Source: Psammoneis japonica
Taxonomy: Eukaryota
DNA: 64,000 nt
Assembly (NCBI GenBank): GCA_008632985.1
Contig: QPGO01000011.1
Span: forward strand, 496,001 to 560,000
Direction: 5' to 3'
Both the position numbers and the translations under genes were made by a program. Under the pieces are notes generated by a model. The model ran no database searches and was not told where the DNA came from. It saw nothing but the letters and a program-made list of their open reading frames with translations. Positions within the stretch are counted from its first letter, which is position 1. Each line of letters begins with the position of its first letter. Shown here piece by piece: positions 1 to 31,261 of the stretch.

Positions 1-3000
1 TCAGCACGCATGCACAGGAAAGGGCAAGACCATTCATTCCTGCGGCCAGCTCGAATGGGCAAAACATGATGTCAACGATCGCTCTGTCAAGGTGCCCAAC
101 GGCTTGCAACATGTCGCCACCCCTGATGGCCATGTCACCCCAATTGACATCAAGGGTGGCCTGCCTCATGTTGCCATGTGACCCCACACTGACGCCGAAT
201 GGGACACCCTGCCCCATGTCATCCTTGCCGGTGATGACACATGGGATCCTTCCATCCTCGATCACTCTGTCACTGACGACGACCAGTGGTGCGACGCGAT
301 CTCTGACCTGCAGGACGATCCCACTGCCAACCTGTTTGACGAATGCGGCAACTGCCGTCACCGTGTTGTTGTCAACAAGGCCATCGTGTCCGCCTCCTTG
401 TCTGCCGATCACGCGTCCGCCCTCGATGACCACCTCATTCCGAATGACAACATGTTCTACGAGTGTCATCTGCATGCGATTGACCCCAAGGACGATGACG
501 TTCCGCCCCCGGAGCGCACTGTGCAGCCCAAGGACCCCCCCTGCGAGTCTCTTTGGCCTCACTTTGGTTTCCAACCTGCCGATGCGGTTCGTCGCACTTT
601 CGACTGCACCACGCAGTGCGCCCGCATGCCCGCCGGCACACACCTTAAGAAGGCCTGCAAATCGCCCAACCCTGCCCTCAATGTGCACCGCCGCAACGAG
701 CCTGTCGCCACTGACACCGTTCATGCCGACACCCCGGCCGTTGACTTCATCAGCGACCGTGCTCAAGTTGAGATCAGCAACAAGGTGCTCGGGATCCTGC
801 AAGCCCTCTTTGTCTCCAGCTGGCAAAGTGAGCCTCACCAGCAACACCAAAACTTTGCTGAACGTCGACACCAGACCGTGAAGCGCATGGCGAACACTGT
901 CATGGACCGTTTCGGTTCACCTGCCCACACATGGCTGCTGGCGCTCATGTGTGTGTGCTTCACACTCAACCACACAGCGTCCCCACATCTCCACTGGCGC
1001 ACGCCCCTCGAGACTCTCACTGGCTCCACCCCAGACATCAGCCCATTGCTTTGCTTTCACTGGTGGGAACCCGTGCACTTCCACCTCGATGACTCTGATT
1101 GGCCATCCGAATCCCGTGAGTTGCGTGGATGCTTTGTTGGCATTGCTGAGCACGTCGGCCACCAGATGACCTTCAAGATTCTCTCCGACGAGACTCAGAA
1201 GATCCTCTGCCGGTCCAACATATGATCTGCTGCCACCGATCCTGCCGTTCGAAACCTGCGTCTTGATCCTCCTGATGGGGAGCCACCTGAACCCATCATC
1301 AAATCTCGCCATGATGACAACCCCGTCGATTCACCCGATGGGGAGATCAGGACACCCAAGATGCCAGTTGACGGGCTCCAGTCCCAGGTGGGACTTTTTG
1401 TGACATTTGCCCCATGGAATTCTACGTGCGAGCTCTGTAGTTCGTACTCTGGTCAATGGACACATTTGTCTTCGACATGAAACAAACGGCCAAGTTTGCA
1501 GCACATGTGTCTCCATTCGCACTCGAAGTTTTGGACAATGCGCCTGCCCCACCATTCTTAAGACACTCGAGAATGGCGTGGAAGAAAAAAATGTTAAAAG
1601 TTGTTGAATGGATCGCCTGACAATTGGCACCAAAATGATGCAAAATTTCGCCAAAATCACGTAGAAATGTACGTGCGCGACATACGACGCGATTCAAAAA
1701 ACTGTCGATGTCACAGTTCAGCAGTGCGAGGTCCCACCCAGACCTGGAACGCATCAGTTTTCGATCCGCAAGACATCATCGGACACATCTTCCTCATGCA
1801 GCCACAAGAGGATGGACAACACCACAGAGCTCGCATCGTCAAGGCCGTCGAAGACCACGAATGGAAAGTGAACGGCAACCCCGAGCTCACCAAGTTCGTC
1901 TGCTCTGTCAACAACGACGAATACGAGGAAGTCCTGGCCTGCAATGACATCATGAATCACATTGAGCAAGAAGATGAAGACACTGCTGTTTGGAAATTTT
2001 GATGCATTGTGTCACACGAAGGACCTCTGAAGCCTCATGACCCAACCTGGAAAGGCTCAAGCTGCGACATTGTGCTTGAATGGGAAAGTGGGGAGATCAC
2101 GTCCGAGCCTCTTGCCATCATCGCCAAGGACGACCCTGTCACCTGCGCCATCTGTGCACGAGAGAATGGACTTCTCGACACTGATGGCTGAAAGCGGTTC
2201 CGCACCATCGCGAGGCGCCAGAAGAAGCCACTCCGCATGGCCAACCAAGCCAAGCTTCGCTCCTTCCGCACTGCACCTCGCCACAAGTGCGGATGCGAAG
2301 TTCCCCGGAACTGCAAGCACGCCATGTCACTGGACGAACGCAACAGCAACCACAAATGGGGAGACACAACTAATCTCGAGATGGACCAACTCGAGGAATA
2401 CGAAGTCTTTCATGACTGCGGGCTCTCCGAGTCTTCCACTCCTCCTGCGGGACACAAGAAGATCCGAGTGCACCCAGTGTGCATGACGTGAAACGCGACG
2501 GCCGCCACAAGGCATGACTCGCAGCCAATGGGCACCTCACGGATGCACCCATTGACATTGTCTGCTCCGGAGCAGTCTCCCTCCATGGCCTTCGGCTGAT
2601 GATTTTCCTGGCCGAACTCAACGAGTTGGAGACATGGGCCACCGACATTGGCAATGCCTGCCTTGAAGCCACCACCAAGGAGAAGCTGCACATTGCAGCT
2701 GGACCCGAGTTTGGCAAACTCGAAGGCCACATCCTTGTCATCCACAAGGCCCTGTGTGGGCTGCGCAGCTCCGGCCTCCGCTGGCATGAGCGCTTCGCCG
2801 ACTGCCTGCGAGCTGAAGGTTTCTTCCCCGCCGTGCCGAACCCGACATTTGGATGCGCAGGAACGGTGACCACTGCGAACATGTTGCCGTTTGTGTGGAT
2901 GACCTCGCCATTGCCATGAAGGACCCTCAATCTTTCGTCGACACTCTCACGGCAAAGTGCAAGTTCAAGCTCAAGGGTGCGGGACCGATTGAGTTCCATC

Positions 3001-4011
3001 TGGGCTGCAACTTTTCCCGGGATCCTGACGGCACCTTGTGCCTGTCTCCGCGCAAGCACATCGAGCGCATGGTCGACAGCTGCACATGACTGTTTGGGGA
3101 GAAACCTGCCACCAATGCCCTGTCACCTCTGGAGAAGGGTGACCACCCCGAACTGGACACTTCCGAACTGCTGGGGCCCGATGGCATTCACCAGCTCCAG
3201 TCTCTTGTTGGTTCACTCCAATGGGCAGTGTCCCTTGGTCGAATTGACATCACCACGGCCGTCATGTCACTCTCTGGCTTCCGAGCTGCGCCCCGTCAAG
3301 GCCACTTGGATCATGCCAAACGCGTCTGTGGGTGCCTCTCCAAGATGCGACACGGCGCTCTCCACGTTCGCACGGAAGAGCCCGACTGTTCGGATCTCCC
3401 TGCTCTGGCCTGTGAATGGATGCATTCCGTGTGCGGCAAAGCAGAAGAGATGATCCCGAAGAACGCTCCACCACCCCTTGGCAAGTTTGTCACTGCCACC
3501 CACTGCGTCGATGCAAACTTGCACCATTGCATGCTCACCGGATGCTCTGTCATGGGAATGCTCCACTTCCTCAACAAATTCCCGGCTGATTGGTTCTCTA
3601 AGAACCAAGCCACCGTGGAGACTGTGACCTGTGGGTCTGAATTTGTTGCCGCAAGGACTTGTGTCGAGCAGATTGTTGACCTGTGCATCACCCTGCACCA
3701 CCCAGGCATCCCGATCCGTGACATTGGTCACATGTTCGGTGACAACAAGTCGGTTGCAGACAGCGCCACCATCCCGCACTCCAAGTTACACAAGCGACAC
3801 ACCGCACTGTCGTTCCACCATGTGCATGAGGCAATTGCCTCTGGTTGCCTTGAGCTCCACTTCATCGAAGGCTCCCGCAACCCTGCTGACATTCTCAGCA
3901 AGCATTGGGGTTGCTCCCAAGTCTGGGGCCTTCTCTGCCCCCTCATGTTCTGGAACTTCATTCCATCCGAAGTCGAGTCTGTTTCTGTGACTCCTCAAGC
4001 AAACTGGGGAG
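1..4011 (+). mobile_element. Ty1/Copia (CoDi-like) LTR retrotransposon pol relic: integrase-RT-RNase H; 5' end outside window, inactivated
   Basis: Integrase (VATDTVHADTPA, ISDRAQVE, SEPHQQHQNFAERR), RT (WATDIGNACLEA, KALCGLRSSG, VCVDDLAIA) and RNase H (CVDANL, TCGSEFVAAR, MFGDNKSV, NPADILSKHWG) in Copia order. Stops, frameshifts and Tyr->Cys/His changes throughout. Confidence 0.95.
1370..1755. mobile_element. 386-bp non-autonomous TIR element (MITE) inserted in the Copia
   Basis: 25-bp imperfect TIRs (1370-1394 vs 1731-1755, 18/25 identical) and AGTT duplication (1366-1369, 1756-1759). Removing it restores ATG CCA GTT TTC GAT CCG (MPVFDP). Confidence 0.85.
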
Positions 4012-4603
4012 TGACAGGATTTGAGCAGGATTTGGGTGCGCACGAAATGTCGCGCGCTGTTTTAGTTTGCCACACACAGTTTTGTGTGCTTCAGTTCCGT
4101 GCATTCGCACGCGATGCAGTTTGCTTTCGAGCCACAAGGCTCACAAGAATGATGACAGCAGCCCGATTGTGCCGACTTGCACATCTTTCGGCTCCTGTGA
4201 CGGTCTCTGAGCAGAGACTCATCTGCCATTTAGACAGCAGTGAGGAGTCATTGTTTGAATTCTTGCCATTTGCCTTCAATTTCTGTCACAAATTGTGTGG
4301 CGGCATGCTGGACGACGCCATGGCGACTGCGATCAGGCTGCTGTGGTCCGACGACATTCCAACTTGGGCAAATGCGCTGCAACAACATGGACGGACCCCG
4401 CCCAGACTCTAGCCCCACTCCCAGCGCGAACCATGCAGTGGTTCGCCATGCAAAATCACGGATGCGCGCGACTGTTGCCCCGAACCATCACGTGGTTCGC
4501 TGCACGCCAGAAACGACCCGACACACAATGGCCAAAAAGGTAGAAGGTAAAGAGACATCTACAACAACTTTGCATCAGTCGATGCAGCAAAGTCTATTTG
4601 ACA
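4012..4603 (+). repeat. Putative 3' LTR of the Copia element
   Basis: Starts TGACAG immediately after purine tract GGGGAG (4006-4011) downstream of RNase H. Candidate end ...TTTGACA at 4603, where TpA returns. No 5' LTR in the window to confirm it. Confidence 0.5.
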
Positions 4604-5067: not shown

Positions 5068-5234
5068 ACGTTTTGCCCGAGTGGGGCTAGTAGATTCCCC
5101 CCGCCCCGCCCGCGGCGCGCGCTGGATGCCGTAGATGGAACCTTGAATGAAAGCTCGTTGCTCGTTGCTCGTTGTGGGTCTGCTATGTCAATTATAATCA
5201 ACAACGATAACAACTCTTACAATATAACGCAACC

Positions 5235-9117: not shown

Positions 9118-11443
9118 CTTGTTAACATGTGTTATTGGCTTTGGAAATCAAGAGATGTGTCGCATTGGCGAACAAACAGTGGCAACACAGCAAATGGGCG
9201 GGAAATCCGCGAGTTCAACACAAGCGGTGGTGGAAGCGGCTGAAGCTGGCGCACGGTGAAACAATGAAGCACTGGCATCGTAGACAATTAGTATCATTCT
9301 ACGTGCATACGTCACCGTTGTCACACCGCATTCCATCTGCATCTCCGGGTTGTTCGTTCTTTAGAGGTTGAAGCTGACAGGCACTGCATTTTGGTGCGCG
9401 ACAGTGCGCCTGAACGATTCTCCCTGCCGTAGTTACACTTCTTCTTCTCCGCAAGCTACGACTCCATGTAATTTCTCCTGACCTGTTGTGCTCCAACACA
9501 ACTGTCCATGCGGTCGTGCCCGCCCCGACCCCCATGGGCCATGGGGACCATGCCTTCACCTGCCCTAAAACAATGCACACAAGATCCCTCTTTCAAACCC
9601 CATGTCCCCCCTCGATGCCATCTGCGCCATCATCAAAACACTGCTCCCCCCCAGTGGTCTGCGCCACTCTTGCCAACAAGTTCATCTAGACCCTGCCGGT
9701 CTTCTTGCTGACCACCCCTTGAAATGCCCCACCGACATTGGTGATCAACTTGCCCCGGCTCCACACGACCACCGGAAGCCTACCCACCCACCAATTTTTG
9801 GCCATCGATGTCACTGTGCCACCAGCCCACCCGCCTCCTGCACCTGGTTTGCCGCCCCTGAAAACCTGTTAAAGAATGCTCACCTTAGCAGCACACAGGA
9901 CAAGCTCCTTGGTTCAACTGCATTGTCCACCTGCCACTCCGACATCATCCCCTCGATGCTGTCGACCAAGCAGGACTTTTCCTCCTCCCGCCCTCACCTT
10001 CGATCACCTGGGTGGTGTCTGGCACCACTTTCATGTCTTCTTCTTTGGCATCTTCACCACAACATCCTCTTCTGTCCCTCCTCTCTCTCCCAAACCACAC
10101 TGGACTGATCCATCTTCTCTCTCCAGCAACTCCCCAAGCTTCCTTCTCCACCTTCAAAAACTCACTCCCAGCCCCCTCTGACTTCCTCACACCCACTCCA
10201 ACAATGCCTGGAAACAAGTGTTGCCAGACTGCTTTGGCGCCTCCCATCATGCCACAAGAACCCCCCAGCTTTGGGCCTCACACATCCTCAGCCTTGACTT
10301 TGGTGTCACTCTCTCCACCCACCTCTCTGCACGCTGCCAAGCCCTCCTTCTCTGACACCCAATTGTCAACTCCCCCTCCCGACCATCTGTCCGCACCCTC
10401 TTTTCCTTCCACCACACACTCCTGCCAACCCACCCATTCCATCACCACAGACCCCTGACACATGCACAATTGAGGGTTTTGCTTCCATCAATGTCAGCTC
10501 ACATTGTGTTGACTGCCCACAGATGACAGCAGGTTGAAAATTCTGCATGAGAAAACAAATCTGCATCAACAAGGGAGCAAAGTCAAGCTGAGTTAATGGG
10601 GTGACACTGCTGAAGTGTCAACCAGTCATCTTTTTGCACACTGTGCCCACGTCAAAGGCTGCAACACAGTGCCCCCCACTGTCCTTTGTGCACTTTTTAG
10701 TGTGCATTGTCAAAATTGTCAACAAGTCGAATTTGAAAAATGCCAGCAACAGCACTCAACAAAATGCACTTGTTTTGTGTGCTGGGCTTTCATCTGACAT
10801 CTCATCAGCTTTTTTGCACAAGCTTCAATCAAATGCATGCAATGTTTGGTTCAATTGGGGCTGACATCTTTTTTTTGCGGTGCATGGTTTGGTTTCCTTT
10901 TAATGGTGGTCATCAGTTTGAAGTTGGTTTTAACTTTGTCCTCCATGCTCATGTGCATGCATCCCTTGCACATGTGCAGCTTGCCTCATGCATGCACACA
11001 GCCCATGCTCATTTTAAATTTTTCTTCATGCTTCCCAGATTTGCACAGCCCATTGGTTTGCGGTGTTTTCAGCTTTTTTTTCACGTGTGCAATTTTCTGC
11101 ACACTTCACAACAGCGCACCTTCTCCTCAAATGTCAGAAAGCAACAGCGTGCTGCCATGATTCATGTGGATTCCACGTGTGGTCACAAATCTGCAAATTG
11201 ACAACCTGCCATGATGGTGAAAGACTTTGCCCCATTGGCCAATGACAGCAGCTCAGTGCAGGGTGAGACCTGCTGTCCTTCTGGTGGTTGGTCAAGATGG
11301 GTTTTGATTGGGGTGTTGCTTGAGTTTTGTCATCCAGAACACCAAGCCAGCAGCACGCCATTGTGTGTGTGCACATCACAAACTTTTCTGCAGCAATGGC
11401 ACAATGGCACATGTCAGAGTTTTGCTTCCAGAATCATTGCAAG

Positions 11444-11750
11444 TCACCACAAATGACACTCTTCAAACAAGGCATGTGCAAAAAGAGGTTCATTGGTTTT
11501 TGATGCATTTGCCAGCAAGAGTGCACCTGTCTTCTCCAATTTTCATGTCCAGATCCAGAAAGACTGCAGGCGGTGCTTGTTCCCACAGCTCTCAGAATCA
11601 CATGCATGAAGCGGGGCTCACCACAAATGACACTCTTCAAACAAGGCATGTGCAAAAAGAGGTTTGTTGGTTTTTGATGTGTTCACTGATGTTGCACCCG
11701 TCTTCTTCCAATTTTTGTGCCCAGATGCAGAAAGAGGACTGCAGAGGTGG
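11444..11750 (+). repeat. Two-copy direct repeat, period ~174 bp
   Basis: Identical 47-mer tcaccacaaatgacactcttcaaacaaggcatgtgcaaaaagaggtt at 11444 and 11618, followed by diverged but alignable sequence. Confidence 0.9.
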
Positions 11751-12074
11751 AGAGTGGGGAGGCAACCCATTGGAGGTTGCCTGAGTTGCAAAGCTCATTT
11801 TTAAAGGCCTCCCAAATCTCTCCACTGTTTCTGGTCCATGCTCCAAACACATCATTGATGGACCATCTGCAGCACAGGAGGTGTGGGGTGAACTCAGTCA
11901 TTGCCACATGACTTGTCATTCATGCAGTGCCTTGCCCAGTGTTGCACACATGCAGGTGGTGCTTGTTCCCACAGTTGTTCTGGCAAGTGCATTCTGTGGG
12001 CAGGGGTGGAACGGGGCACTTGACATTGCACACCAGTGTCCACGTTGCTCCAGAACAAGTGGCGCCAGATGCAC

Positions 12075-12507
12075 GGCAAGTCTGTGTTGCTGCTCCCATT
12101 GGTCATGTTGCTTCATCTGTGTCACACTCTCACAATGTGGTCTGCACTTTTTGGCAATGAACAAGGTGGATCAGAGCAACAGCACTTCTGTCACAAACTT
12201 GCCTGCTCCAGAATTAGCAGTGCTGGATGCACTGGTGAGTTCATGTTGCCATTCCTGTGGTTCATGTTGGTTCATCCATGTCACACTCTCACAACGTGTT
12301 TCACACTTTTTGGCAACAAACAAGGTGGAGTGGCAGTGCTTCCTCAATTTATGGAACAGCAGCTCCTGCTGCTGACTTGCCTGCTCCACAATCAATGGTG
12401 CCAGGCACACCGGTGAGTCTGTGTTGCCGTTCCTGTTGGTCATGTTGGTTCATCCACATTGTGCTCTCACAATGTGTTCTGCACTTTTGGCAACAAATGA
12501 GGTGGCT
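12075..12507 (+). repeat. Three-copy imperfect direct repeat (~160-177 bp period)
   Basis: Core tcatgttg.ttcatc....ctctcacaa.gtg..c..acttttggcaa..aa..aggtgg at ~12075, ~12234 and ~12411. Confidence 0.85.
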
Positions 12508-14993
12508 GCTGGCAGTGGCATTTCAAGAAAGAAAACTGCAGCTGCTGCTGCAAACTCAATTGGTGTTCTTTCCATCAGCATCATTTGAATTAAACACAAA
12601 TGACAAAATGAAATGTTTGCAACGCAAATGATTTTAATTTGAAGGTTTTGCAGGACAGAGGGTGGGAACTCTCACAGGGAAAATGGGTGGCTGTTTCACA
12701 GTGAAAATGGGGGTCAGACCCCATGGCATGAAAATGTTCATCTGTCACAGTTGAAATGCCATCGCCACATGCACAACTGGCAAGGTGTCACAGCACAGAT
12801 TTTTCACCCACAAAAGGGGAGAAAATCACTGTGAGAAAGGTGGTCTCAATCACTGCAACATGTGCTCTGATGCGCTTGCCTGGTGTGCTGTCTTGTTTTG
12901 TTTTCCTGATCTTCTGACACAGGAGGCAGTGTCCTTGCTTGACTGCTGAGTCTGTGGCTTGAGTTTTTTGGTGGAGTGGTTGTGTGCAACTCCCAACAAT
13001 GTGAGCAGATTGTCAATCAGAAACCTGGGCTGCATGCCTGAACATTTTTTGTCAATTTGAAAATGTGTGTGTGTGGGTGGGTGGGTGGGGCTGCAGCTGA
13101 GCCTGCTTTGCCATCTTTTGTCAGAGAGCACTCATGTGTGCATCCATGCCCTTGTGCTCAAAAGAGTGCACACCTTGTTTTCATGTGGGACATCTTGGCC
13201 TCCTCCTCTGTGGCACTCATCAACAAGGAAAACAGCAGCATGTGCCCAAAGAGCCTCCCAAACAAATCCAGCCAGGTGAGCTTTCAACATCTTGCCTCAC
13301 ATTGGAGTCTGAAACCACAGCTTCAATGACCAGTCAAGAAAAAATGGCCCGCGCTGTTGAACAATGTCTGAATCAACCAAAACAACCTTGATCACCCAAC
13401 AAGCAGGGCATTTGCTTTTTGAGAGTCAGCCTGACACGAGACAGTGAGAGGAGGACAGAAAACAAAGTGCTCTGTTTTCCAACCAATGTCCACTGTTCTG
13501 GTTTGGTTGAGTGTGCAGCAGGTGGCTCAACCATCACCCTTGTGTTCTCCCAGACCAGCCTTGCTGTGGTGCTGCAGCCCTTCTGTGAGACCCACATTGT
13601 CACGTTCTTTCCCAGTTGAGAGCTTCAAGGAAGCACGCTGTTGCCTTCAAAATCAGGGGAAAATGTTCATGCATTGTTTGCATCTGCCAGGCAACCACCC
13701 AGTGCAATGTTGTTGTGTGACAAATGAGCTTGCTGAGACAGCTCTGCCTGCTTGCCATGGGAGCATTTTCAGCTCAGACTCTCCAGCTCAGAAATCCAGT
13801 CTTTGGGCTCTCTGTTTTGTTCCCTTGCTCATCTGCTTTGAGTTTGAGAGCTCTCCCATGTCAATCTCTTCATCAGACAGCTTTTTCTTCATGTGCTCTG
13901 CCACTTTCTTGTTCATGTGCTGGCCCACCTCCAACTGTTTCTCCTCCAACTCTTCATTTCACCATGAGCTCAAGCTGTCATGACCACATCACACTTGTTG
14001 ATGCTGGCGTGCTTGCAGTGGGAGCATGGAGTTGCATCTGGAGTGACTGCCAACTTCTTTGCACTTGAACCTGCCATCATTCTCAGTGCATTTTGTCATT
14101 TTGTCAAAAGGGCCACCAGAAGTGTCGTGGCTGGAATCACTGCCAGCAGGAGCACTTGTTTTCATGCTTTCCTCTTTGTGCATCTCTCTCTGCAGACAAA
14201 AGCAGCCCAGGAGCGCACCATTCTGGTGAGTCTGTGTGGTGCAATGTGCTGGAAGACACTTTCTGTGTCACTCATCTTGGTGCCTTGCATCATGCGTTGG
14301 CTCTCCCATCTCTTTGCAAAACTCAACTTCGCAGTTTGGAGGGGCAACTCCGGCCCACGCTTTCTTTTCCCAGCCCTGGAGTGTGACATGGCTGTTGCAT
14401 GGCTTCAGATGCCAACACTTGCTCAACCTGTCAAAATGCCATTTGGTGCAGCAGTCACCTGGCTGCATGGGTTGCTCAACATTTCTCATGATGCTTGGGT
14501 TTGAAGAGGATTTGCGGCTCTCTTGCGACAAAATTCTTGGTTGGGCACAGCACCACGCGAGATGAGCATCCCACTCTGCAACAAAAATGGTGCTGTGTGC
14601 TCCACAGGTGCAAGTTTTCCTTCCTTTTGCTTCTTTGGGTCTCATGTGCTGTGGACCAAGAAGACAATGCCTTTTGCCGTCAGGGTGACTGGGAGCCCAT
14701 GACACTGTGCCATCAACGAACCCCAAACATCTGCTGGGTCTGTTGCTGTGTCCGCCTTGTGTGTTTCTGCCCAACCCCCCTGCACTGACAGAAAGAATTG
14801 TCATTGTCAACCCCGCAAGCAGTGGGCTTTCTTGGTTCATCCATTTCAGCACATGAAACTGCTCCAACAGAGACTTTGAGAAGTTTTGCAGGCAAGTGCC
14901 CTCTCAACCCCCGCCCACCCCACTTTCGAGAAATTCCGTCTGCTCTCTTCCGTGCATGCGGTTCACGCACAACGCACAACGCCGCAGAGGCCC

Positions 14994-15028
14994 TTGACCG
15001 TTGACCGTTGACCGTTGACCCCTGACCG
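14994..15028 (+). repeat. Heptamer tandem (TTGACCG)3-TTGACCC-CTGACCG
   Basis: Read directly; lies at the right border of the TE domain. Confidence 0.9.
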
Positions 15029-15116
15029 ACAAAATCCAAAACGACAAAGGTGTTCAGCTACTATGATACATAGAGAGTAGCTGTTCCCATTGCAAGTTTT
15101 GTTGATTGCACCTACA

Positions 15117-18803: not shown

Positions 18804-20489
18804 CCTCGAGGAAAGCAACGAAACAAATTTTGTGCCATTACAGGCCATGATGAAAAAATGCGTCAATCATCAATGCGCAAGAGTTCGCATTTTGATTTCA
18901 ACTATCACATTTTTGAACATGATTAGAGCCCCGCTCTACCGATCGATGATACACTTGCCATGTACTGTACCGTACCAAGGGGCCAAAAAGTAGTGCCCCC
19001 CCCCAAAATTTGAGTCTTGTACAGTATCATAGCATGGAATTACCGTATGTGACGTTGCCTGCGCGCGTGTATGTGTGAAACAGAAGGATTTGAACAAATG
19101 CGGATATATTGTCACGAATGTGGATACTTGGCTCTATTGGTCGCTGATGGCCGCCCAGCCAGCAGGAGAGTTGGTCAGGGTACGTAGTCTACTGTACTGA
19201 AACCAAGAGATAATTTACTGTAAACCACAGGTAAACCACGCTGGCCGTCATTTACACATTATTTGTACAGCATGTACATGAAGCATGCATGCATTGTGTT
19301 GCATTAGAATCCACACGCCAGCATGCCCCCATCCAAAATTTGAATGTTTCGTATATATTCTTTTACTGTTCATGGAGTGTATATACCCATAATCAAAATT
19401 CCAAATTTTCAGAAGTCGAAACCGTTGAGAACATCCGAAGGAGCACCGCGACCAGAGTTGTCCGTTTCCGTCCCCATTGTAAAACTTGTGCCGAGACGTC
19501 TCACTCTGCTCTTCACATGTTCCTGTCAGCAAATTGTGCAAGGCCACTCACATGAGCATTGTTGTTTCTGTTATTTTGCTGCATGCTTGCGACTGTTCAT
19601 TGAACGTGTCGTTTCCATTTTCTCACTTTGCATGCTGTTGATGTCATCTCCTCATTCAACCTCCAGCAAAGTGCCCTGCAGGAAAAATGCTGTGCTCTAT
19701 GATCAATTGTGTTCCATGATTGCAAGGTGTCTCCTTTTCATTCCCATTTCCATGCAACATCGATGACGACAGTGGCTGGTGGGGCAGCACTGGCAAGAGG
19801 AGTTCGTGCGCAGCTCATTTGGATGACAGGCCCATTCAGCGCTCACGCATGCAGCATGTGGAGTGCTTTGCACTGTGTTCTCATAGCCAGCTCTCTTTTT
19901 TGTTGGTGGCAGCTCTTTTGTTGGTGGCGGCGGTGGCTCTTTTGTTGGCGGTGGTTTGTGTCATCCGGGGGATCAGAAGCGCAACACATCCAGGTGCTGC
20001 ACCTTTCCATGGTGGCCCATTCGCAATGCCCTGGTCCAACAGCCAGTCATGCAATGCAATGCACAGCATGGTGGCTTTTGTTTGTCTGGTGCTGATTGTT
20101 TTTTGGTGTGTCTGTGGGTCCCACTGTGCCAGTGTTTGGTGCTGGGTTGGCCTCCAAAGGTGCTGGCTGCAATTGCGTTGGAGGCACTCTTTTGTGGTGA
20201 TGATGATCCCAGTGGGTCCCAAGTTTGTGCATCTCCAGTGCTGACTCAGATGGTGTTGCTGGTTCTGGCAGATTGAGCAAGAGTTCGAACAAGTTTGCCA
20301 GTGCCTCAATTGATGGACAAGATGATCTTTTGTCTTTTGCAGATGTTCGTGAACAGGGTGGTGGAGTTGCTGTTGGCAACGGTCCTGGTTCAAGCATTGC
20401 ATGCACTGACCCTCCACCTTTTCCAGTGCTGGGTGTGTCTTCACTGTCTGAATGCAAGGTTTTTGTCAGTGCTGAAGCAGGGTTCTCAC

Positions 20490-21700
20490 TGTCACTTGTT
20501 CAAAAGGAATCCATTTTCAACCTTGGCTTTGCATTTGAAGAGCCTGATTCTGGTCATTGGGATCTTTCCAAGTCTGACAAGAAAGCTCTCATTGTGAAGG
20601 GCAAGCTGTTCATTCCACATTGGGGAGATCACATGAAGCAGTGGCCTTGTTGTGCTGTCATTTTTGTGCATCCAGGTGAATGGGTCTCCACATTGCTGAA
20701 GGTCTCGGTGCATCTCTGGCGTCATGCACAACAGAGCCTCTGGCCAGCCAGTCTCATCGTCCCTTTTCAGACAGAAATCAAACCCCAGGTTGCCCTCTTT
20801 CATCAACTCAAGGAATCAAATTGAACTCTTTTTTTTCAGCAATTCTTTGCAAGTTCCCGGGCAAACCCAATGGCGATGTGTTGCTTGCTCTCGTCTGTGT
20901 TGATGAGTCAAGCTTGGACACAATGCTTGAAGTTTTTGATGAAATTTGCATCCATGTCAGTGTGCGCCGGCATGTGCATCTGAAGCAACAAAGGGCGGAG
21001 ATCCTTCGGCTTGACAGATGGGTTTTTCTCTGTCATGGTGATTGCGGACTCAAGACAAGCAAGATTTGGCTGAAGGCTGCCACTTGTTTCTTTTGATTTC
21101 TTGTGGTTCAACACAGTGTTGAGATCATGGCTGTGATCAAGACAAGTTCCAGTGATTTCAATGATGTGAAAAATGTCATGTTTTGGTTTCCCATGAGGAG
21201 ACGGATCCACACACTTGTTCACAAGGGAGCAGCAAATCAAGAATGGGCACTTTGTCTGCTCTTTCATGGTTGGATTGCAGGGGAGATTTTCTTCAACTTG
21301 GGACAGCACATGTTCCTCTTGTGCTGTTTGCACACTTCAAGAAGTGACAGACTGCCCTTCTTTCCATCGTGGATGCAAGTCATGGCCCACATGTCAAGGA
21401 AATGGACAACAGCCTGGCACAGCTGTTTGCAGCTGACAAAATGATGCCCTTTGGGAAACATCTTTTTTGGTGCTTTACCTTGAATGCATCCAAGCAGCAT
21501 TGGTTTTTGGAGCCGTTGGAATCTCTTCCTTGGTTTGGCCCAAGCTGTCAATCTCTTGACAAAGAGCATGACATCAGTGAGCCAGCCTTTTGCAAGAAGT
21601 TCCTTGCTTTGCTCCTTGAGAGGACGCTCCACAGAGTGAGAGCCATGTGCTCCCATGAACAATGGCATCAACACGGAGAACAATGCATCCCAATGGCATG
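20490..21700 (-). pseudogene. Mutator-like (MULE) transposase relic
   Basis: GFDFCLKRDDETGWPEALLCMTPEMHRDLQQCGD followed, after a frameshift, by LDAQK*QHNK. This resembles the MT..M...YGD.LFLD...YN region of MULE transposases, with Tyr replaced by Cys/His. Confidence 0.6.
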
Positions 21701-22063
21701 GAGGTGGAGCGGATGAGTTGGGTGAGTCAGAGGGAGAGCTGGTGGTGACTTCATGGTGAGCGTGAGCCAACCCATCAGCAGCGGTGCCTTCTTCATCATC
21801 AATGATGAGCCAGCCTGGATGCTTCGATGTGTCATCTGGCTTGTCAGAAGCATCGTCATCATTGGATTTGCATGTGTTGTCACAGGCACTGTCATCTTCA
21901 GGGCTTGTGCTGGCATTGTCATTGCTGTTGCTGCTGTCACAGTTGGGGGGAGAGCAGCCCGCATCATCAATGTCAACCACGCTGATGTTGTCAATGAAAA
22001 CTTCATTGCAAGTGTTGCTGGAGTTGTGGTGTGGAAGTGTGGCAGCACTTTAAATGCAGATTT

Positions 22064-23750
22064 CATGTTTTGTTCAACACTCTGTCTTGTCTTTCACCCA
22101 ATTCTCAGTCATCATGGCAGTGTCAGAGCTGGTGCACTGTGATGTTCACATTCCCAGAATGGGCATCAAGAATGGCGTGATGGCACAATCATTGCAATTG
22201 ATCATGGTGCATTGCACCATGTTGGTCCCATGGTTGCTTGTGCAATTGCTGAGTTCTTTGTGTGCATTCACAGATGTTTTTGAAGACCAAATCAATGCAT
22301 GGTGAGACAGGGGGCAGTTGTGTGTCTTTGCCAGTGGCTGGAAGAGGGCGCAACAGGTTCGTCCTTGGAAAAGGAAGCAGGACCATCCTGATGCCATCAT
22401 GTCATTTGTCCACAACACTGGTGTTCCTCAAATCCTTGTTGTGTCAGATGGCACACTGGAAACAGTGGAAGGCCAGAGCAAAGACATCTGCAAGGAACAC
22501 AGACCCAGAGTGGTGTGGTCTCTGTGCCACAAAGCCCCTGGCAGAACAACCCAGCACAGCCATCCACTCATGAGTCACAGAAAAGGTGTTGACACCCTTG
22601 AGCTCAAGACATGGGCCTGGACTGGACAGTTCACCAGAGGGAGCAGAATGCAAAAATGGCAAATCATTGCCAAGGCCTTGTTGGGGTGCTCTGATGTGGG
22701 CAGTTGAGCTTGGATGGATTGAAATCTTTGTTGCCATCTCACTCATGTCCTCCTGCCAGGTGGCACCACAAGTTGGACACCTGGGTGAGGTGCTCCACAT
22801 CTTTGGGTGCTTGAAGGCTCACCCAAAGTCTTCACCAGAGTGTTTCTTGACAACATCGCTGAGCCATTCTTTGATGAGAGCCAGCTCACTGCAAGCATGG
22901 CTGAGAAGAACACGACCACCCTGGTGCAGCTGAACCATTGAGGCCAAACATGGCAGAGACATGCAGGAATGGCTGGCATGACCACTGCTTGCTTTGTTGA
23001 TGCAGATCACTGTGGATGTCATGTGATGTGCAGGTGCAGTCCTGTTGTTCATCCAGCGAGTGCTCATTTTGCACAGCTCTGAGACAAGGCAGAATGCCAC
23101 AGAGTCATCTGCTGCTTTTGGGCTGGAGTTCATGGCAATGAAAGCTGCCATGGAGCAAATCAGAGCCTCTTGCATTGCAAGCTTCAGATGCCAGGAATTC
23201 CCCCTGGGTGGGGCCACTGACATCTTTTGCATCAAGAACTGAACTGGACCAGAGCCCATGTTGCAGAAAAGAAGCACAATGCAGCTGCACACCACAGGAC
23301 TCATGAAGCACAAGCAATGGGAATTGTGAGCATTGCTCTGGAGGACAGATGCTCAAACCCAGTGGATGTGCCAACCAAGTTGTTTGATGCCTGGACAGAA
23401 GCTCCTCTGGGAAATTGCAAGTCACATCTCATGGTGAGTCCCAAAAGGGGACACACCAAGCAGGTGTGCCACACACCTGGAAGTGGTTTTGTCATTTCAT
23501 CCCCAAAAATTTAGAAATCACCCTGGAATGAGGCAGCACCAGGGGGGGGGGGGGGGGTGGGTGAACAAACAATGCTGATGCACTGTCACAAATGTGGGCA
23601 GTTGTTCACCATTGGCAATTTGCCCACCGTCACTGACACAGTGGCCCCAGCAGCAGTGCAACTGACTCACAGCTCCAGAAGAACCTGTTGATGTTGCTCA
23701 ACACTCTGTCTTGTTGTCTTTCACCTCATTCTTGGCCATCATGGAAGCAT
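22064..23750 (+). mobile_element. Internally deleted Copia relic with probable LTR remnants
   Basis: Integrase (KRKQDHPDAIMSFVHNTGVPQILVVSDG), RT C-terminus (WAVELGWIEI..SLMSSCQVAPQVGHL..VLHIFGCLK) and RNase H (FVDADH, QNATESS..FGLEFMAMK, KKHNAAAHHRTHEAQA). Flanking direct repeat tcaacactctgtcttg..tctttcacc at ~22073 and ~23698. Confidence 0.8.
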
Positions 23751-26700
23751 TTGTTCAGATTCATCCTTCACTTGGAAAAACACTGCTTCCATGGTCGTTT
23801 TCTGCTTCTAAATTGAGTCTCATGATGTGAGAGTTGCTCACAGTGGCAGACCTGGTCCTTCCTGCCTCAGCTCTTAATTTTTGAGCAGCCGGCATTGACC
23901 CTGTGACTGCTGTGACTGGGTGGCAACTTCAGGGGGAGGGGTTGGAAGATGAGGAAAGGAGGAAGAAGCACCACACCAAATCTGCTCAGCTGCTGCCTGC
24001 AGTGACAAGAAGGAGGGTGAGGACATCAACACAGAGACAGAAAAAGCAGTGCACAAGGGCTGCACTGAGACAAAGAGACACTGCCACCTCTGCAAGAGCC
24101 AAGTGTGTGCAAACTGAGTCAGTGTGAAAAGAAAATTTCTTCCAAAGCAAAGGAGCTTAGAGAGTGCATGTGTTGCGAAGGGGCATTTCCCCAAAAAGGG
24201 AAAGGAGAGTGAGTTGCAACATTGTTTGGGGCAAACAGTTGGTGGAAACAGCAGCTTTGAAGTGGAGCACAACTGGACAGGGATGGCCACACTTTCTACC
24301 ACCTTTGAGCCTCTGTGTGGTGTGGCAACTGTGTGCTCCATGTGATGCCCTCCTCTGGTGTCTACAGAGGCTCTTGCAATTTCAAAGTGCAGCACATGAT
24401 TTGTTTGCACCAACCAAAAAGTTGAGAGACTCCAACTCTTCTGCCCCATGGCAAAGCCATTGTGCCATTGCTTTTGATGCTAGAATTTGCACTGGTCTGT
24501 TGCACCTGTTCACGAGCCCTCCATCTTTTGCAGCCAATGAAAGCTGGACAGAAGCTCACCCAACAATTTGTCAAAACATTGCAGAAATCTTGACTTTCCA
24601 CTTTGAGATCAAAAGAGATCCCTCAGACAAACCCAGCAACCAATCTCCCTGACAGCTGCAAATCACTTTTGAAGACAAAAGAGCAACACTTGCCATCATC
24701 ATGCTTCAATTGTGGGGCCTGATGACATTCTTTTTGTTTGCAATTGGCTGCAAACAAGCACATTTTTTGTGCTCAAAAGTGCACACCCAGAAAAGGAACC
24801 AATGCTCACATGGCTGGTGTGGTGCACCTTTCAACATGTGTGCAACTGGCTGAGAAGCAGGAAGATGCACAATGCCAAAACATGAGCAAGTGGAAGTGCC
24901 ATGTGAGACAGCTGATTGGTTGGCCCATGGGGTTGGCCAGAGTGGGAAACTGCGACACTTTGTTTGCAAGGTGCGAGCCATTTCAATTGCCAGCCCATCA
25001 ACCACACATGCAGCCCTGGCATCAGACACAATTTTGCTGCAGCTGCAAAACGGCAATCCCCTGGCTTGTCATGTGAGCTCTGCAAGTCCTTGACAAGGAA
25101 AAGCTTTTGGTGAGCTCTGTTGTGCATGGCAAACAATTGTGCGCCATTTTGCTCTTCTTTTCCATGCTCATTGGCGATGATGCATCAGCAGAAATGGCTC
25201 ATCACCACAGCCTGGTGAGCACTGCTGTTGTCAATCTGCACAAGGGTGTGTGCAGTCCAGCAATGGCAGCAAGGTTTTTGACACTTGCTTGAGAATTGCA
25301 GGCAACAGCTCACACTGGCCAAACTGACACATGGCAACATTGTTCATTTTGTGCATCTGACAAGTGGACAAGAACAACAGCACGCAGCAGTTTTTTTTCA
25401 TGAGCACACATTGTCATGTCTTCACAACAGTGCTGCAAAAAACCAGTGCTGCCACAGACCATGGCTGCTTGGGCAGTGTGTGCAACATTGCAAGAGACTT
25501 TTGCAGACACTGTCACATTGCACTTTGGCAAACAAGCATTCCATCAGCTGCTGTCAGCTCTCTGATTGAGAGACACACAGCATGAGTGATGGCAACACAT
25601 GCCAAGAACAGTCTGAACTTGGTTGGAATGCCTGGCACTGGTGTTCCTCTTCCTCTTCCTGTGACTTTTCATTGGACCCAGCCTCGTTGCCATCCAGCTG
25701 ATCATCTGGCACTTGATGCTCAAGATCATTTGCATCTTGTTGGTGTCATGATCCACTCCTGCATGCCAAAGAAGTCAAAGGAACACATCAATCTTTGGTC
25801 TTCAGCTTGGGACCATTCCTCTTGTTGTGCTTGGCTGTTGCATTGACAGCAGATGCTGCAATCACTGTCAGTGGGACAGGAATGGCAGAGACCCTGCTGC
25901 CCATGAGAACTTGTGTGGTGGCAAAGTGAAAAAAACATGTGTCACAACATTGAGAGGCCTGAGGCAAACAGCATCAACCATGCACTGTGCAGGTGTGTCA
26001 GAAGGATTTGGCTCATCACAGGCTTGGATGTGCTGGCCAAATGAAGGAAGAGACAATGACCACACTTCTTTTGAGATCTTGTGTTTGGCTTGCAGTCATG
26101 TCCAAAGCAATGGGCAGCTGGATCTCAAACTGAAGACCAGCTCAGCTTCACTGTTCAAAACTTTTCAGTTCAGTTTGAGCATCCAACACTGGGTGCAACT
26201 TGGGTGTGGCCAAAGCCTTGTGGATTGGCCAAGAATGGAAAGCTCATGACAGCACAAATGCAAAAATCTAAAGAGTGAATGAAAGCAACTGCAGCGTTCT
26301 CTGAAGGAAACAGCACCACACTTTTGCCAGTTCAAACCACACAGACTTGCCATGCACTCATGCTCAGCCCTTGTTTCTTGCAAAGCAGGTTCCCCCAAGA
26401 CCATTTTCCCAGTTCAATTGATCTTTGGCTGTTCACTGGCTTCCTGAGAACTCTTTTCAAGCAGCTTGTGAAATTCTTTCATGAGTTGACATCCCTTCTG
26501 TGTGAAATTGATGAACTGATGATTCACTCTGGGCTTTGAATCAGGAAAGGAATCCTGCCTTTTGTGCTTGGCAACAAGGCCAATGCAAACACCAGCTTCC
26601 AATTCCAAGAGGCCATGCTTCTTTTACAGATCAAGCTCCCAAAACAAAACCAAAATTCCACATTTAAAATGCTCCTGCACTTCCACCCTGCAACTCCGGC

Positions 26701-26979
26701 AACACGCCAACCCACACCCCCAGCACACTGACAGTGCGGCAGGAGCATGTGGTGATTGGCCAGAATCGGCATCATCCAAGGGTGATGCCACACCAAAATG
26801 ACTTGCAATGGTTCTTGCACCTCTGGCAGCAAACTGCACTGCTTCTCCAATGCTTGATTTGAACATTGGCCTGACCATGGCCAGCCAATTGCAGAGAGAC
26901 AATGAGTTGAATGTGTCAAATGTTCTTCAACTGAATCCAATGGATGTGCCCTGTCTCACCAGATTGCAACATGTGGCTT

Positions 26980-29100
26980 TCACCTCTGCTTTGCTCAGTG
27001 CTGCTGGGAGGACTTCCTTGTTTCCACATCGTGACCATGGACCGCATCATTGTGTTCATCCCACAGCTCCCACCACTGCTCCCAAATGCAATTGCCAATT
27101 GCAGCCACCTTGTCCAGTCTCTCATCTTGTTCAGAGAGGTTCTGATGGTGAGCACCACTTGCCAAAAGATGCAAAGTTTGTGTCATGTTCCACACTTTGG
27201 AGAAGTGTTTGTCAAACAACTGACTCCATCCAATTTGCTCCTGGGACTGGAAAACTGTCACCACACTGTGACGCAGGTCCTCAGAACAAAGCAACTCCTC
27301 CCAGAACCATGCCTCTGCGGCTGAAGGAATCAAATCGCACAAGGACGGGCATGCATGGTTGAATGATGTCACACTTCTTACACAGACCTTGTGGAAATTT
27401 TCGATGCCAAGCTTCACTGTGCAGACAATGGAGAATGTGGTCTCTGTCTTTCATTGGATCTTGACAGTGTGCACAACAATCTGGGTGGGTGGGGTTGTGT
27501 TGGTGGATGACTTTGTTTGTTGGGAGAAGTTCCTGCACCAGCTTGACCACACTGACTTTCTGGCAGATGTTCCAAGACATTGGTTTGGCGCGCATCTCCC
27601 AGTCAATCGATTTGCGGGTTTTGTTGGACCAACCACACTTCTCTTTCATGCATCATGTTGGATGACTGGCTTGCACTTGGCCAAGATTGTGGCACCCTGT
27701 GCAATTAGATTGGCACTGCAATGGGGCATGCAAGGTGCAAAAGAGCGTTGCTGGAGAAAAATGACCCTCGCATTGTCCTGCCAATCTGTTGGCTTTGATG
27801 TTCAACTGAGCTGCCAAAGACAAGGAGTCCATGGGCATTGTGATGTCTTGGTGTCCCTTGACCCAGTGGACTGAGACTTTGGCACCATGCTGCTCATTGC
27901 AAGACATTTTGAAGATTTGTCGCATGGAATGAAAATTTGATGAAGACATCCCAATCTGCGGAAAGAGCATTGGCGATGTCATGTTGCTGATGACAGTCCC
28001 TGGCACCTTGAATTGCCTCATCATCTGTCAGAAAAGGGGAAGCCTGGAAATCAGAGACATTGTGCACAAGTGAGGAACTGTCACAGTGCACAATGTCCGC
28101 ACCTTTGGCGAGCATTTTGCAACAATGTTTCATCAGTTGAAACAGGAAACAGAGGAAAGACAACAATCCACATGCTTCAACTCAGCAAGATGATGAATGA
28201 AAACCAAAAACCAGGTGGCACAATCCACCAATGGAGTTCCGTCAACTGCAAGTGTCCAACCAAACGTGCCCCAAAAATTGAGGACCCAATCCATCACTGC
28301 CCACTGAGGCTCGATGATGAACCAGCAGGTCTGTGACCTTGAACACAGACATGTGCAAAGTCAAAACATCAAACAACAAGGACTCTCATTTGGGGAGAGA
28401 TTGCAACATTGCCCTGAAGTCATTGGGAACTCCCAGAAGGGTGGGTGGCGGGGAAACCCGTGTGCCCAGGGAAGTCATTTGCCAACAACCAGCATGGGTG
28501 GCATGTGCCAATCATGCTGGGGATGCTGCAGGGGAAATTTTGGGGATTGTTGCCAAGGCAGCTGCTGATGCAGAGCATCTGTCAATCACTGGAAATGTCT
28601 GAAAACTGGAACTGTGCAAATGTGCAGGCAGTCTTCCAAAGGCTTGTTGGGCATGCTGCATGAGACATGCACATCTGGGGGTTCGGTGCTGCCCACTGCC
28701 CCAACAGATGGCTCATTTCCAACAAATTGACTTTGCACAAAAGGGAACATGCACTGTGCCATTGTCTCCAGGCCCTGGCAGATGGGTGGGATTGTTTGGT
28801 GGGATTCAAAGTCAAATGGCTGCTGAGAAGAGAGTGTTTGTGCCATTGACTTTAAATTGATTGCCAGATGTGCCATCTGGCAAAGCAACATCCAACAATG
28901 TCAGAACATTCAAACACAATCAACAACAATTCACCCACCAGATCTCCCAATCAGCAAATGCGTGTGACTCAAGTGCCATGTCCATGATGCATTGGTTGTC
29001 ATCCTGCTGCAAAGGCAACAACACACCAGTGTTGTTGAAGTCAACATGCACCTCAATCCTGGCCAAAAAGGAACAGAGAGACATGAATCAATGAGATGTG
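26980..29100 (-). mobile_element. Non-LTR retrotransposon (LINE with RNase H) 3' relic
   Basis: PLQQDDNQCIMD, PSARAWRQW..LGQW, RNase H VHWVKGHQD..LSLAAQLNIKANRLA, SIDW, CAHC..DRDHILHC zinc-knuckle-like motif, QEQIGWSQLF, WELWDEHNDAVHG. Confidence 0.75.
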
Positions 29101-31261
29101 GAATGAGGCAATTTGGTGTCAACATCTTGAAAAAAGTTGACTCCTGTGCCTTTTTCAAACTGAATCCATGCCACCACAATCTGGGAAAAAGCTTCTTGTG
29201 GTTGCCCAGAGCCTTGCCAATGTCAAAGAAACTGCAAAATCTGTGCCGCTCCCTGTCCCACACTCAAAGACCTGAAACCTCTGCCTCCCAATGAATGTGG
29301 ACCAAATGAAACAGATCAAGCTCCCAATTGTCACCAGCATCAACAGGGGCCCAAAGTTTCGTGTGCGTCTCATTCGGCATTGGTGCCCAGCACAAGCTTT
29401 CTCTGCATGTTTCTTCTTCTTGGTGTGTGTGTGTGCCCCCTTGTGCCTCCAGAAATCCATTCATCCCACCCTCATGATTGGCACTTTCTGTTTCAGTGCA
29501 TCATGACAAAGAATTGGGTTTGTTGTCCACAGCGGAGGCACAGAAAATTTCTAATTCCCAACTGGGCTTCCATTTGGTGGGCAATCCATGTGGCGTCATT
29601 TGCGGCTGCAAAGGCGCCATTGCTTTTGACTCTCCAGCAGGAGCATTGGTGCCATGTCCATCCGTGGGTTTGGAGAAGACACGTGATGTGACTGCAGATT
29701 GCACTGGGGGCATGGTTGTTGGCATTGATGTTGTTGGAGCTGAGGTTGCATTGCAGGATGCAGTTGGGCATGGCATTGCCATCATCATGGTCAAAATGGT
29801 CTTTGCTTCTTTGCTTCAGTGGCAGCTGCCACCAGCGGATGTGAAACTGGTCGATGCCTGGCACATGCCAAAAAGTGCCTTTTTTGCTGCATCTCTCCAC
29901 CTCTCACATTACGTTGAAAATGCCATTGTGTTGTCACTGTCACATTTGCAGACAAGAATCATCACAATGGGGTGTGCCAATGGAGCAAAGGATTGGAAGA
30001 AATGCAACAGACGACTGTCCACAGTGGCAGAAAAAGAAGCAAGGGCCAGCAAGAGATGAGGGGGGTGGGCTGCAGAGCATGCAGAGAAACATTGGAAGGA
30101 TGATGAGGAGTGAGAAAAGGAAAAAAGGAAGGCAAACTTTTTTGCCACCCAGACAAAGCACAATGAAAATGCAAAAGAAACAGAGCAGGAGCAACAACCC
30201 AAGCCAGACATCTCCATTGCAAAGAAACAAACGTTGCTGGTTGCAACAGCACAGAGATGTGCACTTGCAAACATTGGTGCAAACCTTGATGATGAAAGTG
30301 AAAAGGGCACTGATGACCAATGCAATGAAGCAGCTGAAGGCATGGAGGGAGGATGATCTTTTGTCATGAAGGATTGTTTTTCTGCCACACTCTCACATTT
30401 CACAGAAGAGGACTCGCCAGTGTTTTGGGAGAAAAACCCAAGCGGTCGGCAAGCTGAAGTTGTTGGAGGGGTTGGCCAAAATTGCAGATGAAGCACGGGA
30501 CTTGTTTGGATCCATGCATTGCACCCAGCTCACAGCATGTGCCTTTCAAAAGCAGTCACAAATGAAGCTCCCCCCCACACTTGTGAACATGCGCAAGTGG
30601 AGAATGATCTTGCTGTTGTCCTCTCTGAGCCACTTTCTGGGGGGGTCATTCCATCTCATTGTGTTTGCTGCCTTCCACCACCAATGATCCTCCGGAGGAA
30701 TGTTCTTGGCCAAGCAGGGTTCCATGTCACAAGTGTCCAAGGCAGTGTCCTCAATAAATTGTGTCCAATGTTTGCACTGCTCTTCACTCCAGAAGCCACA
30801 CTGCCCCCCTGAGACTTTAAAAGGATCTTCTTCTTCACCAGAATAAAAAGTGATTTCATTCGCTTGAGAGATCCCCCCACCGGCAGTTGGTGTGTCTGTC
30901 AACACGTGCAACTAGCTAGCTAGAGAGGAGGTAGGTTCCTACCGCAGGAAGATGCACAAAACTAAAACGTTGTCTCACAGGAGTGCTGTGCCGCAGGAGT
31001 CAGCTGATTGGCTCACAGGATTGGCCAGTGCATGCAGCTCTCACGCTCCGCACGGTGTCAGAAGCGGGTTGGGGTGTTCCTCTCCACCAGCGCATTGCCC
31101 ACTACTTGGAGAGTAGAGGGCTAGCTACTAGGAATCTGGAGGACGCAAGATGAAGTCTATTTTTTACAGAACACATTATTTCTAAAATCGGAGGAGGCCG
31201 TTCTATGAAAAGCATCCTTGAAACACCGACGAGTTTCGCTCAGACCTGTTCTTTAAACTTC

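Follow-up and report, generated by a model that had tools for sequence, protein, structure and literature searches.

TpA-poor blocks in the window

We analyzed a 64,000-nucleotide stretch of the genome of the diatom Psammoneis japonica (contig QPGO01000011.1 of assembly GCA_008632985.1, positions 496,001 to 560,000 of the forward strand), hereafter the window, in which islands nearly devoid of the dinucleotide TpA alternate with host genes for phosphoglucose isomerase, an SMC protein, glutamate dehydrogenase, a serpin, alcohol dehydrogenase and others. Four TpA-poor blocks were delimited: block A (1-4540), occupied by a Copia-type long terminal repeat (LTR) retrotransposon on the plus strand whose 5' end is cut by the window start; block B (9900-15058); the composite island of block C (19395-30912); and block D (63640-64000), the start of a TpA-free stretch that leaves the window. 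All four are affected, and Copia is the only element content positively identified in them. Our results point to a real, targeted and TpA-specific A:T to G:C mutation of transposon islands in this genome, a reading in which we have good confidence.

A preliminary description of this DNA had reported a near-absence of TpA from four intervals and normal frequencies in the genes between them, and our counts agree with it on both points. Expected numbers were computed in two ways, from base composition and from the rate of the flanking genes (0.0387 per bp). The interval 1-4600 holds 23 TpA against 226 expected by composition and 178 at the gene rate; the corresponding figures are 15 against 345 and 216 for 9480-15050, 23 against 753 and 442 for 19500-30910, and 1 against 22 and 17 for 63560-64000 (Poisson p from 7e-07 to 4e-154). 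The 40 gene-region windows of 1 kb contained 17-62 TpA each (median 38) and those lying wholly within blocks 0-10. When pooled, the blocks (20,948 bp) gave observed-to-expected (obs/exp) ratios of 0.04 for TA (48 sites), 1.78 for TG and 1.74 for CA, compared with 0.57, 1.18 and 1.17 for the gene regions (41,721 bp). The longest runs without TA measure 2,424 bp (12635-15059) and 1,788 bp, and dinucleotide maps drawn per kb and per 250 bp showed the depletion to be restricted to the mobile-element islands, the intervening genes being normal. The earlier estimate of about 7 TA in 3.6 kb of Copia pol holds only when a gene-like island at 1420-1690 is excluded; with the island, positions 1-3600 contain 15 TA.

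Block by block, and again at the gene rate, we counted 19 TA against 176 expected in block A (obs/exp 0.086), 10 against 200 in block B, 24 against 446 in block C and 0 against 14 in block D (p 8.5e-07). The right borders of blocks B and C are sharp to the base, at 15058/15059 and 30912/30913: a run of 2,424 bp devoid of TpA gives way to five of them in the 20 bp from 15059 on, and the same pattern is found at 30913. The left borders are gradual, with ~400-500 bp of sparse TpA at 9469-9886 and 19390-19884. A separate stretch upstream of the serpin gene (63250-63640) has a TpA obs/exp of 0.18-0.24 with normal CpG, an edge pattern like those of 9500-9900 and 19395-19884.

A Copia retrotransposon in block A and the direction of change

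Block A contains, in order, an integrase, a reverse transcriptase (RT; RVT_2), an RNase H and a 3' tail. This order, together with a strong similarity to Copia polyproteins, places the element in Copia. In tblastn, residues 620-1097 of the 1881-aa polyprotein P0001 aligned to 2-1252 and residues 1117-1880 to 1688-3980, making residues 620-1880 collinear with positions 2-3980 of the window, with frame changes. A phmmer search with the open reading frame (ORF) 3090-4409 matched 8,823 proteins in a representative library, the best of which was again P0001 (66% identity, E 2.4e-123), and no nearer paralogue of the element was found above 67% identity. Near-length relatives carry PF07727, and the Pfam RVT_2 matches in the window, at 2518-2916 and 2817-3086, reach 24.8 and 26.8 bits, under the cut-off of 31.6. 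Self-BLAST of the window gave no LTR pair for this element, whose 5' end lies outside the window.

The comparison with P0001 reveals what replaced TpA. Only 2 of the 47 Tyr of P0001 face a Tyr codon in block A; 23 face TGY (Cys), 12 CAY (His) and 10 other codons, so that 35 of the 47 carry the products expected from A:T to G:C transitions on TpA. Other residues are largely kept (Trp 17/20, Gly 58/72, Pro 43/56). At the five columns with Tyr in at least 70% of 18 homologues, the window reads Cys in three, His in one and Leu in one. The change extends to the RT catalytic box (2892-2903, plus strand), where in the translation of ORF 2817-3086 YVDD is now CVDD: codon 2892 is TGT and aligns to Tyr of P0001, and the homologue P0008 retains YVDD. 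The ORFs of the blocks have essentially no Tyr, with Cys and His in excess, and the six frames of block A contain 177 TGA stops against 19 TAA and TAG together. GC content is 0.56 in block A and ~0.48 in the genes. The claim that TA had turned into TG or CA on both strands is supported by these codons and by the nearly equal numbers of TG and CA given below. The TpA deficit is best read, from such alignments, as the outcome of mutation and not as a native composition.

Within block A lies the gene-like island already mentioned (1420-1690), with 8 TA against 10 expected, a GC content of 0.454 and a CpG obs/exp of 1.29. It has perfect 9-nt inverted arms at 1420-1428 and 1658-1666, and at this point the element of the window is ~270-375 bp longer than P0001, P0004 and P0006. 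The island is possibly a later insertion that escaped hypermutation; if so, hypermutation of the surrounding element had already stopped when it arrived, which would speak for action in bursts.

Relatives in public data

We then considered the 80 metagenomic Copia loci most similar to the element among 342 confirmed matches, a choice in which heavily mutated copies are under-represented but from which the baseline of the family is nevertheless clear. None of the 80 is TpA-free, with TA obs/exp from 0.34 to 1.09, and 69 loci have a mean of 49 TA per kb in the same gene segment (range 24-82), where the window has 2.3. Relatives with a CpG obs/exp as low as 0.16-0.25 retain TA at 0.46-0.64. Whether relatives were equally TpA-free had been put forward as a check on the mutational reading, and the outcome favours mutation.

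A minority of homologues resemble the window. Among 150 representative homologues, six Copia pol fragments (P0024, P0025, P0039, P0122, P0123 and P0124) are free of Tyr or nearly so (0-0.5% Tyr) and contain 3.0-5.4% Cys and 4.9-7.4% His; among 120 near-length homologues, one (P0311) has a single Tyr. The Tyr-free homologues display the same Tyr-to-Cys/His pattern at conserved columns as the window. At the eight Tyr columns that read Cys or His in both P0311 and the window, the choice between the two residues differs at four, as independent conversion predicts. Other genomes or contigs appear, from these protein alignments, to carry the same TpA erasure.

Strand symmetry, sequence context and CpG decay

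The two products of conversion are balanced. The pooled blocks contain 2304 TG and 2300 CA, block A alone contains 400 and 424, and the split of the converted Tyr codons (23 TGY to 12 CAY) does not differ significantly from 1:1 (binomial p 0.09). Runs tests on the order of TG and CA revealed no strand patches in blocks A, B and C (z of +2.6, -0.2 and +1.7, respectively; gene-region controls from -4.2 to +0.7). ApA, ApT and TpC are not depleted to a similar extent: obs/exp in blocks and genes is 1.21 and 1.14 for ApA, 0.89 and 0.93 for ApT, and 0.99 and 1.14 for TpC. The process is strictly TpA.

The few remaining TpA outline a sequence preference. Fifteen lie in TTAA, where 31.1 are expected at gene frequencies (0.48), and 12 in CTAA/TTAG, where 56.7 are expected (0.21); all other contexts are at or below 0.05. 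Congruently with a sparing of TTAA, TTGA/TCAA is the only TG/CA context without enrichment (0.88). Of the 18 TpA left in block A, six stand directly before CG (TACG, at 458, 1423, 1670, 1683, 1922 and 2399); an adjacent, possibly methylated CpG may protect such sites, or they may be newly made.

A loss of CpG that the preliminary description had missed overlaps with that of TpA. CpG obs/exp is 0.80 in block A, 0.21 in block B, ~0.16-0.18 in block C and 0.25 in block D (0.16-0.25 across blocks B-D). Block A has lost ~90% of its TpA and ~20% of its CpG; in blocks B and C both dinucleotides are depleted, but at the edges TpA is scarce and CpG still abundant. The first 490 bp of block C retain CpG, and the TA-poor domain reaches past the CpG-poor one at the block edges. 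Decay of CpG has begun in block A too, since of the 56 Arg of P0001 aligned there nine read His or Cys and three a stop; frame changes at ~2479 and 2820-2844 add to the decay of this element. The TpA process is separate from CpG decay and apparently faster. Decay of 5-methylcytosine (5mC) explains the CpG loss of blocks B-D but not the loss of TpA, and a link to methylation is not evident because block A lost its TpA without much loss of CpG.

Content of blocks B, C and D

Another, distantly related Copia pol fragment (22580-23487, plus strand) lies in block C and aligned in tblastn to 16 long Copia polyproteins at 26-46% identity. None of its 11 positions aligned to Tyr in at least three homologues is Tyr, and the best supported of them (13 homologues) reads TGC. 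The preliminary description had listed Copia, Mutator-like elements (MULE) and long interspersed nuclear elements (LINE). Its Copia part stands, now with two different fragments, and neither Pfam nor Atlas returned anything in favor of MULE or LINE. Nine ORFs of block B matched no Pfam family, an Atlas search with ORF 21267-22049 (minus strand) gave a best score of 0.84 and no family, and the rest of blocks B and C yielded nothing in Atlas or in Pfam, whether searched as ORFs or as frames with stops coded as X. The X-coded Pfam scans gave sub-threshold RVT_2 in block A only.

Block B also includes tandem repeats, with two copies of ~174-bp units at 11444-11790 and three of ~158-178-bp units at 12046-12555. 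The copies differ mainly by double mismatches of TG versus CA, which make up 10 of the 37 mismatch columns in one pair; these mismatches are the result of independent decay of former TA and/or CG sites.

Contigs assembled from public reads (see below) gave an indication of copy number. Their depth is 850-2970 over 10334-13001 and ~1430-1730 at 21673-22339 and 26342-27008, a summed depth 15-50x that of the flanking genes, which identifies these segments of blocks B and C as members of abundant repeat families; 529 of the 905 contigs mapped matched at only 90-95%. Over the TA-free segment 13002-15002, the depth is 58-66 and equals that of the flanking single-copy genes, although this segment may have been repeated in the past. 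Targeting of the process to repeats, as had been proposed, is hence no more than possible; other parts of the blocks are highly repeated.

Support for the assembled bases

The public sequencing evidence consists of three runs of one sample (X1-X3), available as contigs (Logan). Run X2 covers 7 of 30 bins, and run X3 gave no coverage. Run X1 contigs, at a k-mer depth of ~58, differ from the assembly by 10 substitutions and 7 gaps over 13096-17046 and by 16 substitutions over 23574-26704, and they reproduce the TA-free sequence. They reach 3,987 and 3,131 bp, with differences of 0.25-0.5%, and cross a block border. Among the 40 differences listed out of 124, 33 lie in blocks, and of these 33, 15 exchange CpG with TpG or CpA and 3 exchange TA with TG or CA; the differences look like alleles or strain differences. 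An artefact of assembly is unlikely because these read-derived contigs reproduce the TA-free sequence at ~58x, which answers the earlier call for read support.

Host genes and other features

Among the genes between the blocks, the phosphoglucose isomerase is 81-82% identical to named Seminavis, Phaeodactylum and Cyclotella proteins, which marks the host as a diatom. The ORF at 33025-34848 (plus strand, 607 aa) has no Pfam family, and its relatives form a diatom-rich cluster together with many bacterial proteins; the named bacterial matches are from Planctomycetes and the Atlas clusters from Verrucomicrobiota. It is possibly a gene of bacterial origin in diatoms. Two gene-region segments of ~550 bp, one at 31515-32053 that overlaps a protein-kinase ORF and one at 35404-35950, share 67% identity and are probably paralogues that have diverged.

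Proposed mechanism and alternatives

In the reading that we favor, a locally confined process acting on DNA turns nearly every TpA into TpG or CpA, depending on which strand of the palindromic step is hit, and proceeds almost to saturation (at least 95% of sites). The elements are inactivated by missense and not by stops, in that Tyr codons become Cys or His, including that of the RT YVDD box, and TAA and TAG are removed and never created. Ordinary 5mC decay of CpG is superimposed on the older islands. The process would act in place on chromosomal DNA, work in bursts and be enzymatic, presumably through a deaminase directed to silenced or foreign chromatin. Deamination of adenine to hypoxanthine would be the likeliest chemistry, though we favor it only tentatively.

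Several points weigh against this proposal. The changes were read against a protein of 66-67% identity, the closest one, in place of an ancestral or intact copy of this family in this genome, and the nucleotide spectrum drawn from it is consequently not a full one. Only one sample supplied the contigs that back the assembled bases; it is possibly the source of the assembly and its platform is not on record, so the support is not fully independent. The TG-versus-CA mismatches between tandem units of block B can also be produced by CpG decay, and at one site the third unit has CG. The gene-like island at 1420-1690 misfits a continuous action on a whole chromatin domain. TACG is the natural loop context of TadA, and a TadA-like preference predicts that these sites would be lost first, yet they are residual in block A. 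Action in place after integration is an indirect conclusion, and the enzyme and the targeting signal are wholly inferred.

The alternative that fares best concerns the chemistry. A dioxygenase of the TET/JBP type could oxidize T at TpA to 5-hydroxymethyluracil (5hmU) or 5-formyluracil (5fU), with T to C changes following from mispairing or misrepair. 5fU mispairs with G, and a T to C change at TpA on either strand yields the identical CpA and TpG products. Moreover, the 5hmU of dinoflagellates is reported to sit mostly in repeats and to prefer T in TA and TC (PMC11572971). TpC is however undepleted in the blocks (obs/exp 0.99), and we found no evidence of 5hmU in diatoms, this genome itself not having been searched for it. 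We regard the thymine route as unlikely, though well ahead of the explanations that follow.

The changes could instead predate integration, through editing of RNA (ADAR- or ADAT-like, with a preference for U-A) or of cDNA, the element being inserted already mutated. The coincidence of the sharp borders with element ends and the nature of block A, the clearest case and a retroelement, agree with such a scenario. Editing of sense RNA would however give A to G changes on the sense strand only, and 12 of the 35 converted Tyr codons are CAY, an antisense change, with TG equal to CA overall; this strand symmetry excludes sense-strand RNA editing. Block B, without a trace of reverse transcriptase, and the composite block C are equally affected, and a conversion of ~95% restricted to TpA is unlike known hyper-editing. 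In the chlorarachniophyte Bigelowiella natans, in addition, a recent preprint reports mutations that appear de novo in single-copy DNA of the chromosomes (Mettrop et al., bioRxiv 10.64898/2026.01.13.699255). We consider changes before integration quite improbable.

Still less probable is an artefact of sequencing or assembly, in which modified TpA in silenced DNA would be miscalled and the true sequence would be TA. Modified bases do cause systematic miscalls on some long-read platforms, and no platform is recorded for either the assembly or run X1. Against it stand the agreement of the X1 contigs described above, the expectation that a palindromic modification would give conflicting calls on the two strands and not a clean TG or CA, the independent decay of block A (frame changes and the Arg changes to stop, His and Cys) and the existence of Tyr-free relatives in other public data sets. 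Equally hard to sustain is the error-prone repair of polymerase-eta type recruited to methylated repeats that the preliminary description had offered as a candidate. A to G at TpA is part of its WA to WG signature, but the ApA half of WA is untouched (1.21 in blocks and 1.14 in genes). Finally, elements natively free of TpA through selection or codon usage, for example by avoiding a TA-specific host nuclease or TA-targeting transposons, would account for the depletion itself and nothing more, and this idea has next to no probability given that conserved Tyr, including the catalytic one of YVDD, are Cys or His, that none of the 80 related loci is TA-free, and that non-coding and composite parts are equally depleted.

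Returning to targeted mutation of TpA in place, a broader and more speculative extension is that diatoms and chlorarachniophytes, both members of SAR (Stramenopiles, Alveolata and Rhizaria), share a dedicated "reverse RIP" (a reversed form of repeat-induced point mutation, RIP) enzyme system of genome defence that edits TpA; we hold this to be possible but rather doubtful. Such a system would recognize newly integrated or silenced mobile DNA and edit duplex TpA in bursts on either strand, by a natural deamination of DNA adenine or its thymine-side equivalent, with TTAA as a poor substrate. It would be independent of cytosine methylation and faster than CpG decay, and would kill elements through the erasure of Tyr codons.

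Significance

Until now, a single preprint on one chlorarachniophyte was the only report of foreign DNA undergoing targeted A:T to G:C hypermutation. With the TpA signature now seen in another algal lineage, one that is distantly related and ecologically dominant, such hypermutation may be a genome defence widespread among eukaryotes. The saturation of the sites gives a clean read-out of sequence preference, with TTAA spared, and of the relation to the decay of CpG methylation; since diatoms are genetically tractable, the responsible enzyme should be findable. A natural enzyme making A to G changes at TpA in chromosomal DNA would interest the base-editing field. In practical terms, transposons erased in this way escape annotation by domains, as with the ~16 kb of blocks B and C in which Pfam is blank; the GC content rises locally, and the age of elements can no longer be estimated from their divergence.

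Comparison with known systems

RIP in ascomycete fungi changes C:G to T:A mainly at CpA, raises TpA, lowers GC content, creates stops and needs duplication. The process described here resembles it in the irreversible mutational inactivation of mobile DNA, the sharp limits of the affected segments and the transitions on both strands. It differs in that A:T becomes G:C at TpA, TpA is erased, GC content is raised and no stops are created; the C:G to T:A change with gain of TpA and lower GC content that marks RIP is not seen, the direction being the opposite. 5mC decay also starts from a palindromic dinucleotide and ends in TpG and CpA. It has affected blocks B, C and D and is frequent among the Copia relatives from metagenomes (CpG obs/exp down to 0.16), but it leaves TpA untouched, and CpG-decayed relatives keep theirs. 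The preliminary description had set the process apart from both RIP and 5mC decay, and the opposite direction of RIP and the loss of TpA with retention of CpG in block A bear this out.

The editing of animal retroelements by ADAR and APOBEC is likewise a deaminase-type hypermutation of mobile elements. These enzymes act on RNA or single-stranded cDNA, leave strand-coordinated clusters and affect retro-copies only, whereas here both strands are equal, patches are absent and non-retroelement sequence is also affected. The B. natans preprint notes that ADAR favors a 5' U (bioRxiv 10.64898/2026.01.13.699255). In dinoflagellates, 5hmU is reported to be a product of TET/JBP homologues that is found mainly in repeats, has a silencing effect on transposons and takes the place of T preferentially in TA and TC (PMC11572971). 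The resemblance lies in a modification of bases that is aimed at repeats and favors T in TpA; it is however reported as an epigenetic mark and not as a mutational erasure, and it also prefers TpC (PMC11572971), which is undepleted here.

The closest counterpart is found in B. natans, and the earlier remark that no described system of this kind was known is outdated in view of it, as the preprint describes the same TpA signature (Mettrop et al., bioRxiv 10.64898/2026.01.13.699255). According to its main text, 231 of the 302 nuclear single-nucleotide mutations in mutation-accumulation lines fell in integrated giant-virus and virophage regions, and 230 of these 231 were A to G or T to C, all 230 on TpA; the rate was ~6e-7 per site per generation, with mutations only in some lines. 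TpA-poor coding sequences rich in CpA and TpG were enriched there for reverse-transcriptase and DDE domains, and an ADAT2-like protein was proposed as the candidate (bioRxiv 10.64898/2026.01.13.699255). In common with the window, as far as that text goes, are a strict change of TpA to TpG or CpA on both strands and its confinement to integrated foreign or mobile DNA, the rest being normal. By analogy, the process in the window appears to be of the same kind as the TpA hypermutation of B. natans.

The two cases also differ. The host here is a diatom, a stramenopile, and there a chlorarachniophyte; the targets are transposon islands here and, in the text of the preprint, giant-virus and virophage insertions there. 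Depletion reaches an obs/exp of 0.03-0.09 in the window, compared with a Rho of 0.45 for the nucleocytoplasmic large DNA virus (NCLDV) region reported for B. natans, where the virophage region is undepleted, and CpG decay is superimposed here. The B. natans mutations were measured in real time, whereas ours are read from sequence only. A full-text literature search found no report of TpA erasure in diatoms, and the main text of the preprint covers neither flanking context nor diatoms; TTAA as a spared context and an order of changes free of strand patches are observations made in the window. What the window adds is a diatom host, transposons as targets, near-saturation, a separation from CpG decay, the sparing of TTAA and an action without strand patches.

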